A DNA stretch of 64,000 nt, taken from NCBI RefSeq assembly GCF_000027125.1, contig NC_017627.1; one strand, written 5' to 3'. Below, piece after piece: positions 54,801 to 57,800 of this stretch. Every line of letters begins with the position of its first letter. Within the stretch, counting starts at the first letter, position 1. Source of the DNA: Escherichia coli 042. Lineage in GTDB: Bacteria; Pseudomonadota; Gammaproteobacteria; Enterobacterales; Enterobacteriaceae. The position numbers are program-made.

Positions 54801-57800
54801 TGTGTGACGGAGGCAAACACCGTCGCACTGTCACTGACGGAATGCCCGGGCGTTTCCACCCAGCCGTTCTCCAGCTTCAGTGCCGTGAACGGTGAATCGC
54901 TCACAGGCAGGGAGGCCGGTTCAGCCCGCCCCGGCACAACAACCGTCATCGCATCTTCACTGACGGATGCCACCTGCAGGCGGTCACCGCCGGAGACGCG
55001 GAGTCCGGGAATTTTCCCTGTCACCCTCAGTCGCTCGCCGTCTGCCACCGGCATTTTTTCCGGCCGGAACAGCGACCAGCTGCTGTCCAGGGAGGAAATA
55101 CGCACCACCTGCGTTTCGCCCTGCGCATCCCGCAGGGTCAGGCTGTGACTCTGCGCTGTCACCCGGTCTATCACATAGCGGTCATGACTGCGTGTCTCCG
55201 GGTTCCACTGCTCCATCACCATCCCCGGTCGGTACATATCCCGCAGATAACGGCTCCGGCTGTCCAGCCAGACCGGTGACAGTGCAGTCATGGTCACCTC
55301 AGGGTGTCCGAGCACGCCCTGCGTTTTCAGCTCACTGCGAATGGCCTGTGTCAGTATGGCCTGTTCCCGTACCCCGCTGACCTGTGCCACGCTCTCTTCT
55401 CCGGCTTTCACGCTGGCCGCAAAATCTCCGGCCAGCCGGGCATAGCGGACATTACGGTCCGGTTCACTGATGATGGTGGCCGGTCGCTGTTCTCCGCCCT
55501 GCCAGCGATATGTGTTCACCCCGGCATCCTTCATGGCCATCAGCGCACTGCCTGTACCGGTTCGCTGCCCGCTGTCGGTTATCAGGACCTGTACGTTATG
55601 ACGTGCGGCACCGTCCAGCAGGGTTAACGTCTCTTTCAGGGAGAGTTTTTCGCCCTGGTCGACGATAACAGTACTGCCCGGCGTGAAGGCCATGCCCTCC
55701 TGCAGCTGACGACGTCCGGTTATCAGCTCACCGGACAGCCGTTCATCCTGCTTCAGGTTCATCTGCGAGCGACGGTCAGCGGCGATAATCTGCATCTCCC
55801 GCCCCTGCTCCCGGGCCATCATGACCAGTTCAGCCACCCGCTCACGCTGCCCGGCTGCACCGCCCTGCCCGGAAACAATGGCCAGCGACGGACGGTCCTG
55901 TGCCAGAACACTGACCGCATCGCTGTAACCAGCCGTCCGGGGGACACTTTTCTCCGGATGTACGGTCACCCGGTTCTGTTTCATGATGTCACGACTGAGT
56001 GCCCGGACGGACAGCTCATCGAGCACATGAATTCCTGATGTGAACAGCCCCTTCTCACGGTCGAGGGGGATAAGCTGCTCACGACTGATGGCCTCATCGA
56101 TACCGGCGCGTGCCCGTTCAATCACACCATTTTCCGGCGGCAGTATACCGACCGTTCTGGCCAGCACGTCCGTGTACGTAAACTGCACTTTTCGTTCACT
56201 TAATCCGGCAATGGCCTGTGTCACCGCCTGCTGCACATCCGGCCCCTCCTGTGAAACAGCCCCGGGCGCCTGCGTGTGGGTCTCCGCACGCTGATCCGCC
56301 GCGTCACGATATGCCCGGATGTCGAACCCGGTTTCCTTCAGCGTCTGCATCCATTCAGCCATTCTGACTTCAGGATCGACGTGCTGTTTGGATTTTCGCG
56401 TATCCAGTGCCGCCACATCCCGGGATTTCAGTGAGGCCCCTTCACCGACGGCCTCCCGGATAGCCTGTGAGCGTCCGGAGAAGGCTTCCACCGGTACGCC
56501 CGGCATCTCCCACATACCGTGCTTACCGACCACTTCGGTTTCATAGCCCAGTGCCTCAACCTGCTCTTTCAGTTTTTCCCGGTAGAGCCTGCCAAAGGCA
56601 ATCTGATTAGCGTACACATTCTCAATGAACCCCGTTTTCCCCACTTTGTCACTGCTCAGTGTCTTCCACTCACCGTTATGCTGCGTGACATTAGCCACCA
56701 CCGCATGCGTGTGTAACTGTGGTTCCTGATCGCGACTGGTGTCGTGGTTAAACAGTGCCATCACCAGATTACCGGTCAGTACCGTTTCTGACTGTCCGTC
56801 CGTCATCACCCGTGTGGAGGCCAGCGCCTCCACCTGACGAACAGCAAAGTCCACGGCCTGGTTATGTGCATCAATCAGGCGCTTATCGCCACCTAACATG
56901 GCCATCATGGAGACACTTTTGGGGGCGGAGAAGGTCAGGTCGTAGCCGGGACGATGCTTATTACTGCCATCCTGCATGCGGCTTAGATCCGCTCCGTCCG
57001 GCAGCCTTCCCTCCAGAAGACGGGTAAAAACATCCTTATCGACACTGCCCTGCAGTCCCAGCTGTTCAGCCCCCCTGCCGGCCCAGCGTTCTCCCATGCT
57101 GCCCAGTACATAGTAATTATCCTTGTCGGTATAATAGTTACCGGCACTTCCGGCCGATCTGACCTGCGCGATACTCATCATCAGAAATCATCTCCCGGCT
57201 CAACATCCTCCCCACGCTCCCGGTGCACATTAATGTTCACCTCTTCACGACGCTGCATCTGCTGCTGGATGTCCGGATGATTTTCCTGTTGCCATGCCTC
57301 ATAAGCGGCCATATCCACCACTTCACCGGATTCACTGATCCCGGGTGGCAGTTGCTGTTCCATCTCTTCTTCCGGTTTCATTTTCAGCTCCTGCTCGATC
57401 CCCCCTGCCGGAACACTCACACCTGCATCTGACTTCTTATCATTGATGACAGAAGACACTGGCTGTTGTGACTGTTGTGACTGTTGTGGCTGTTGTGGCT
57501 GTTGTGGCTGTTGTGGCTGTTGTGGCTGTTGTGGCTGTTGTGGCTGTTGTGGCTGTTGTGGCTGTTGTGGCTGTTGTGGCTGTTGTGGCTGTTGTGGCTG
57601 TTGTGGCTGTTGTGGCTGTTGTGGCTGTTGTGGCTGTTGTGGCTGTTGTGGCTGTTGTGGCTGTTGTGGCTGTTGTGGCTGTTCAGCCTGAGTTACGTCT
57701 TCTCCGGAGGCAACCTCCGGTTCGAAGAGGCTGGCCATCTGGCGACCTTCTGCTTCCCTTGCAGCAAGTACGGCACTCAGACGGTTCTCCATTTCCGGGT

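Follow-up and report, generated by a model that had tools for sequence, protein, structure and literature searches.

We analyzed a 64,000-nucleotide stretch of DNA from Escherichia coli 042 (contig NC_017627.1; hereafter the window) and found that the part of its traD gene encoding the C-terminus carries 24 tandem copies of a 9-bp unit, most of which encode the tripeptide QQP. This tract is an already known and common hypervariable VNTR, and the window allele is merely a long one. The explanation that accounts best for what we found, and one that we hold to be probable, is that the VNTR encodes a tether within TraD, that the number of units changes fast by slippage, and that the resulting variation in length is mostly near-neutral.

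The gene lies at 57181..59532 on the minus strand and encodes a protein of 783 amino acids, the type IV coupling protein (TraD) for conjugation of the F-like kind. The Pfam profiles TraD_N (PF12615; aa 32-128, 2.9e-35) and TrwB_AAD_bind (PF10412; aa 172-561, 5e-117) both matched above their curated cut-offs, and the TrwB crystal structure (PDB 1e9r) matched aa 161-573 (3.5e-47). The nucleotide-binding and all-alpha cytoplasmic domain at aa 172-561 (57850..59019, minus strand) includes a Walker A motif, GTVGAGKS, at about aa 192-199, of which G192, G197, K198 and S199 were invariant over 33 homologues. Aligned with F TraD, the protein matched from end to end except in the tract, with about 98% identity outside it. 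The tract is followed by a conserved C-terminal region (aa 692-783; 57184..57459, minus strand) with the TraM-binding tail at its end; the last 56 residues, from LPPGI onward and ending ...DVEPGDDF, are identical in F TraD, in which residues 710-717 make the TraM contact (PMC7555446; PMC3159463). Domains, Walker A motif, C-terminal tail and synteny all agree with membership in the F-like TraD (VirD4/TrwB) family, and judged by its sequence the gene is one for an F-like conjugation coupling protein. The initial annotation had named the gene traD, placed the repeat in the C-terminus and stated that the tail contacts the relaxosome; the two domain matches and the position of the tract bear out the first two points, and the contact with TraM is established in the literature (PMC3159463).

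Tandem Repeats Finder reported a single array at 57460..57683 (period 9, 24.9 copies, 99% matches, no indels, score 434), which appears on the plus strand of 57300..57900 as a run of TGGCTGTTG. The 24 units in exact register occupy 57460..57675 on the minus strand. Read in the coding sense, 21 copies of CAACAGCCA (unit a, QQP) are followed by two of CAACAGTCA (unit S, QQS) and by one more CAACAGCCA, an order that we write as a21 S S a and that gives 22 QQP and 2 QQS. The encoded tract (aa 620-691 of 783; 72 residues, 216 bp) consists of Q, P and S only, begins about 46 residues past the structured ATPase domain and stops 92 residues before the C-terminus. Its fixed 5' edge is a leading near-unit, GAACAGCCA (EQP), at 57676..57684 (minus strand), which F, R100 and most of the other alleles examined share, and its 3' end is marked by the two QQS units (units 22 and 23; 57469..57486, minus strand). 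Comparison of the arrays identifies the S S pair as a duplicate of the penultimate S unit of pKSR100-lineage plasmids (e a_n S a). About 25 units with roughly 22 QQP had been proposed for 57461-57683, a count that agrees well with the 24 units, the near-unit and the 22 QQP seen here. Such a run of 22 identical tandem 9-mers cannot arise by chance. Moreover, synonymous sites are identical in 22 of the 24 units, which points to recent expansion and homogenisation, not to selection on an old protein repeat.

R100 and related plasmids share the minus-strand gene order traG - traT - (orf) - traD - traI. In the window this strand encodes TraG at 61804..63921, TraT at 60523..61353 and the 1756-aa traI relaxase/helicase at 51911..57181; traI has the same annotation in related plasmids. 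The start of traI overlaps the stop of traD by 1 nt, as in R100; in F (31967..32592) and in pNDM-EC16-50 (3528..4153) a vapBC-type toxin-antitoxin pair lies between the two genes. The ORF between traT and traD (59583..60386, minus strand) encodes 267 aa without an NCBIfam match, and its counterpart at the same place in R100 and relatives is a 245-aa 'hypothetical protein'. The traD-traI region (window 57000..60000) is a fine-scale mosaic and, taken more widely, about 4% divergent. The 200 nt that follow the array downstream are identical to those of R100/pKSR100-type plasmids. From the traI start on, the window is nearer the types of pCV839-15-p1 and p542093_2, and its mismatches to R100 reach 41 in 200 nt.

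As to the wider background, the window looks like a pAA-type virulence plasmid of enteroaggregative E. coli. The closest PLSDB record, CP091411.1, contains aggR, aap and aar, and positions 1..50000 of the window encode an AraC-family regulator, a fimbrial usher, a 1299-aa SPATE-like autotransporter and several IS66 transposases adjoining the distal tra genes; example loci of such pAA-type content are 23011..25596 (minus strand), 28061..31960 (plus strand) and 41080..41877 (minus strand).

We then compared the array with those of individual plasmids. F TraD (NC_002483.1, 717 aa) has a single unit (EQP-QQP), so that the statement of more repeats in the window than in F is correct, at 24 to one. 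R100 has 9 units (e a9), and p542093_2, an EAEC pAA-type plasmid with the closest backbone in PLSDB (95% coverage and 98.2% identity over window 40000..64000), has 4 (e a a a g). An array of 24 units, pure QQP, is found in pCV839-15-p1, whose TraD is also 783 aa long. Longer arrays occur in pKGu016_2 (33 units, e a28 g5), p1-S1-CAM-04-C (40 units, e a34 g6) and pNDM-EC16-50 (NZ_MG515250.1; 60-61 units on recounting, all of them a units), and the ORF is intact in the last two, at 831 aa (annotated as intact TraD) and 891 aa, respectively. Arrays with terminal g units (CAACAGCCG) always had the F-type downstream flank VSPAIN; arrays of the a34 g6 type could come from recombination between R100-type and F-type sequences within the array or from lineage history, and the data are compatible with both.

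To place the window allele among known ones, PLSDB and the complete E. coli genomes of RefSeq were surveyed with a synthetic query in which 200-nt flanks surround an over-long array, and the span of each hit was converted into a unit count. With the low-complexity filter, alignments were seeded from the flanks only, so records rank by array length; counts derived from spans have an error of +/-1 where the flanks carry indels, and F-type flanks have a 3-aa insertion. In PLSDB the locus was present in 3979 records, of which 27 had more than 24 units and four had 24, with a maximum of 60-61. A sample spread over the ranks (57 informative records) had a median of 8 units (IQR 5-11) and, below the top-ranked record, a maximum of 20. 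Among the 3209 RefSeq records, 23 had more than 24 units and seven had 24. These counts place the 24-unit allele within about the top 1% of lengths, and it is neither unique nor the longest. Repeat counts across F-like plasmids, which the initial annotation had named as a check to make, are anything but invariant, with a known range over the databases of 1 to 60-61 units. No 100% match to the window sequence was found in PLSDB or in the RefSeq complete E. coli genomes, nor did the exact 783-aa TraD protein have a match in a collection of 15 billion proteins. The novelty of the window TraD is at the level of the allele only, as a TraD of 783 aa whose 24 units are all QQP is encoded in CP024975.1.

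How fast the array changes can be seen in the pKSR100 lineage. Six plasmids of this lineage, from Shigella flexneri, S. sonnei and E. coli, carry 12, 13, 14, 17, 18 and 19 units, yet their flanks show only 0-1 mismatches in 2696 + 2700 bp; a seventh has 16 units and an indel downstream. The differences in length are confined to the pure a run, whereas the 3' end, S a, is constant. A spread of 12-19 units between nearly identical flanks of 5.4 kb means that slippage is far faster than point substitution, and the length variation by slipped strands that had been anticipated for this tract is what these plasmids display. Intact alleles all differ by whole codon triplets, and both the traD frame and the TraM-binding tail are preserved. 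The copy number thus moves in steps of whole 9-bp units, and the mechanism is slippage in replication or unequal exchange among units that are identical. We also considered a hairpin or other non-B DNA structure as the driver of expansion and ruled it out, because neither strand of the tract DNA folded better than dinucleotide-shuffled controls (z = -0.47 and +2.22). Since there is no excess folding, misalignment or unequal exchange of identical units suffices and a hairpin is not needed.

What the tract does in the protein may be gathered from its surroundings. In the AlphaFold model the tract is coil, with pLDDT of 27-38, between better-predicted helices (579-603 and 741-762). As a whole the model, built on a shallow alignment of 33 sequences, is mediocre (mean pLDDT 58.8), so that it speaks only weakly for disorder. 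Beyond about aa 573 the window TraD had no match to a Pfam domain or a solved homologue. The C-terminal extension of TraD has been called unstructured, with a variable region of QQP motifs (PMC3245843). We measured the spacer from PYPAVKL, at the end of the ATPase domain, to LPPGI in the 90%-identity cluster representatives of Enterobacterales TraD. The spacer ranged from 97 to 162 aa among the representatives, compared with 169 aa in the window and 103 aa in F; in the homologues its sequence is not conserved and is rich in P, Q, S, T, A, E and G. The tail after LPPG, for its part, is 53-57 aa long in most representatives. That distant homologues have non-repetitive spacers rich in P/A/S/T at the position of the tract fits a length-tolerant disordered tether.

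We suggest the following model. (QQP)n would be a low-complexity segment of the disordered extension, placed between the hexameric ATPase ring, which is anchored in the membrane, and the conserved C-terminal region; the final residues of that region would dock onto the TraM tetramers of the relaxosome. Single TraD tails bind the TraM tetramerisation domain weakly; the contact gains strength from the avidity of the TraD hexamer for cooperative TraM-oriT complexes, and flexibility of the tail is thought to help (PMC3159463; PMC7555446). In such an arrangement the segment may serve as a flexible tether, unconstrained in sequence and tolerant of length, and with a longer tract the six tails might reach further in their avidity-based capture of the TraM-oriT complex. 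Tract length would then have at most a modulatory effect on transfer, and its variation would be mostly near-neutral drift driven by mutation. We infer this near-neutrality because alleles of all these lengths are tolerated and because turnover is rapid.

Of the other explanations, the one that survives best is that the tract is an adaptive, quickly mutable 'rheostat', in which the reach or entropy of the tail tunes docking, plasmid specificity, ATPase regulation or susceptibility to RNA phages, and in which selection shapes the length distribution and favours long alleles in some hosts or plasmid backgrounds. We consider this possible but unlikely, and we think it quite doubtful that QQP length sets the reach or entropy of the six tails in such a way as to tune conjugation, non-cognate mobilisation or RNA-phage entry. 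Lang et al. did suggest that R17 infection may differ from plasmid to plasmid because the TraD C-terminus is heterogeneous, in QQP length among other respects, and they proposed phage resistance as a driver of T4CP diversification (PMC3245843). TraDs of the Klebsiella type, moreover, keep spacers of 153-162 aa, so length itself may matter. However, the TraM-contacting tail is constant at any tract length, across the range of 1 to 61 units the alleles are found in plasmids that were typed as conjugative or shown to be so, and epidemic plasmids with identical backbones drift over 12-19 units, as expected without strong stabilising selection. Repeat ranges that differ between Salmonella genotypes carrying pSLT (PMC6459517) could reflect selection, but they are also expected from vertical inheritance of a marker that mutates stepwise.

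The single functional observation on a very long allele comes from pNDM-EC16-50, the plasmid with 60-61 units. It was self-transmissible in experiment, at a mere 2.5e-7 per donor, whereas related IncFII plasmids transferred at 1e-3 to 1e-4 per donor (PMC6402710). The low value speaks for an effect of length and is compatible with a cost of extreme length, but it is confounded by many other differences between the plasmids, and the authors do not ascribe it to the repeat (PMC6402710). A functional test of repeat number was not found in the literature searched. If length did tune transfer, slippage would allow a lineage of plasmids to sample different transfer rates within epidemiological time, and the 24-unit and 61-unit alleles would be down-tuned or differently specialised states; were such modulation shown, the tract would be a simple, fast-evolving determinant of the spread of IncF resistance and virulence plasmids that can be read from sequence. 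The observations listed above nevertheless argue for the near-neutral tether as the preferred reading.

It is much less probable that the count of 24 units is an artefact of assembly, with a 216-bp tract that was expanded or collapsed. The tract does exceed the typical length of short reads. In a cluster of 4849 'partial' TraD proteins, three of the six members inspected end at or just within the tract boundary (e.g., ...VTQA), and in several database records, where traD is not annotated, the span is no multiple of 9, as would be expected of indel errors in long reads. The window array, however, is in exact register with an intact ORF, and its order, a21 S S a, fits the a_n S a pattern in plasmids that were finished independently. 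Many laboratories have also deposited arrays of 24 or more units, in no fewer than 31 records of PLSDB and 30 of RefSeq.

Two observations on the quality of database records were made along the way. The 596-aa representative of the cluster of 'partial' proteins (P0017) ends ...GEGVTQA, one residue before EQP(QQP)n (window about 57684), and this suggests that short-read assemblies commonly break at the traD repeat and so give rise to annotations of 'partial TraD'. The PLSDB records with spans that are not multiples of 9 and without traD in the PLSDB gene table (H67, H103, H105, H116, H124, H130 and H146) probably reflect indel errors in long reads, or else true pseudogenes with a frameshift in or near the tract.

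Finally, the idea that the tract encodes a plus-strand product or acts as a structural element of DNA or RNA, instead of a protein spacer, can be set aside as having next to no chance of being right: three plus-strand ORFs do cross it (57443..57691, Cys-rich, 82 aa; 57468..57803; 57484..58245) and a 'hypothetical protein' is annotated under this part of traD in some RefSeq records, but these ORFs mirror the repeat (runs of CCG, VVA and LWL) antisense to a strongly supported gene, the DNA folds no better than its shuffles on either strand, and variation in a unit that is a multiple of 3 never breaks the traD frame. We rejected the plus-strand ORFs as mechanical mirror artefacts.

For the present the tract is of modest practical importance. 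The repeat can be used as a hypervariable marker for fine-scale tracking of plasmids, it is a known trouble spot for short-read assembly, and one should not read too much into TraD proteins that differ in length from plasmid to plasmid.

The tract can be compared with several known systems. Contingency loci likewise have a hypermutable tandem repeat within a coding sequence, but they switch ON and OFF, whereas the traD tract, with its 9-bp unit, modulates length only. We had considered an ON/OFF phase-variable contingency locus as a candidate and rejected it: the unit lies within the coding sequence and is divisible by 3, so the frame is always kept and there is no switch. In TraD of the Klebsiella/Raoultella type (clusters P0038, P0040 and P0047) a spacer occupies the same position, before the conserved LPPGI...QRREEVNIN tail. 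Those spacers, of 153-162 aa, are similar in length to the 169 aa of the window, but they are rich in P/A/S/T and not repetitive and hence not prone to slippage.

The closest counterparts are earlier descriptions of the same repeat. Lang et al. 2011 (Mol Microbiol 82:1071, PMC3245843) reported heterogeneity of QQP motifs in the TraD extension of F-like plasmids, that is, the same motif at the same position of the same protein; the window tract, with its 72 residues, is longer than that of any reference plasmid in their study and adds two QQS units. A 2019 paper (PMC6402710) described tandem repeats of CAACAGCCA in traD, 61 versus 11. The tract of pNDM-EC16-50 is identical to that of the window in its 9-bp unit and its flanks (...SGEGVTQA upstream, VSSVINDKK... 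downstream); the window differs in having 24 units and S units on a different, pAA-like backbone, with the EQP leader kept. The window tract has the marks of the traD 9-bp (QQP) VNTR: its units lie between ...VTQAEQP and VS(S/P)..., and at this locus the number of units is polymorphic among near-identical plasmids. Hiley et al. 2019 (PMC6459517) found a 9-bp traD VNTR (PSLT104) with 5-19 copies among 220 isolates in pSLT of Salmonella Typhimurium, where it serves as an evolutionary marker. This repeat is also in frame, but it belongs to a different family of TraD alleles, about 90% identical, and the 24 units of the window exceed the range reported for it.
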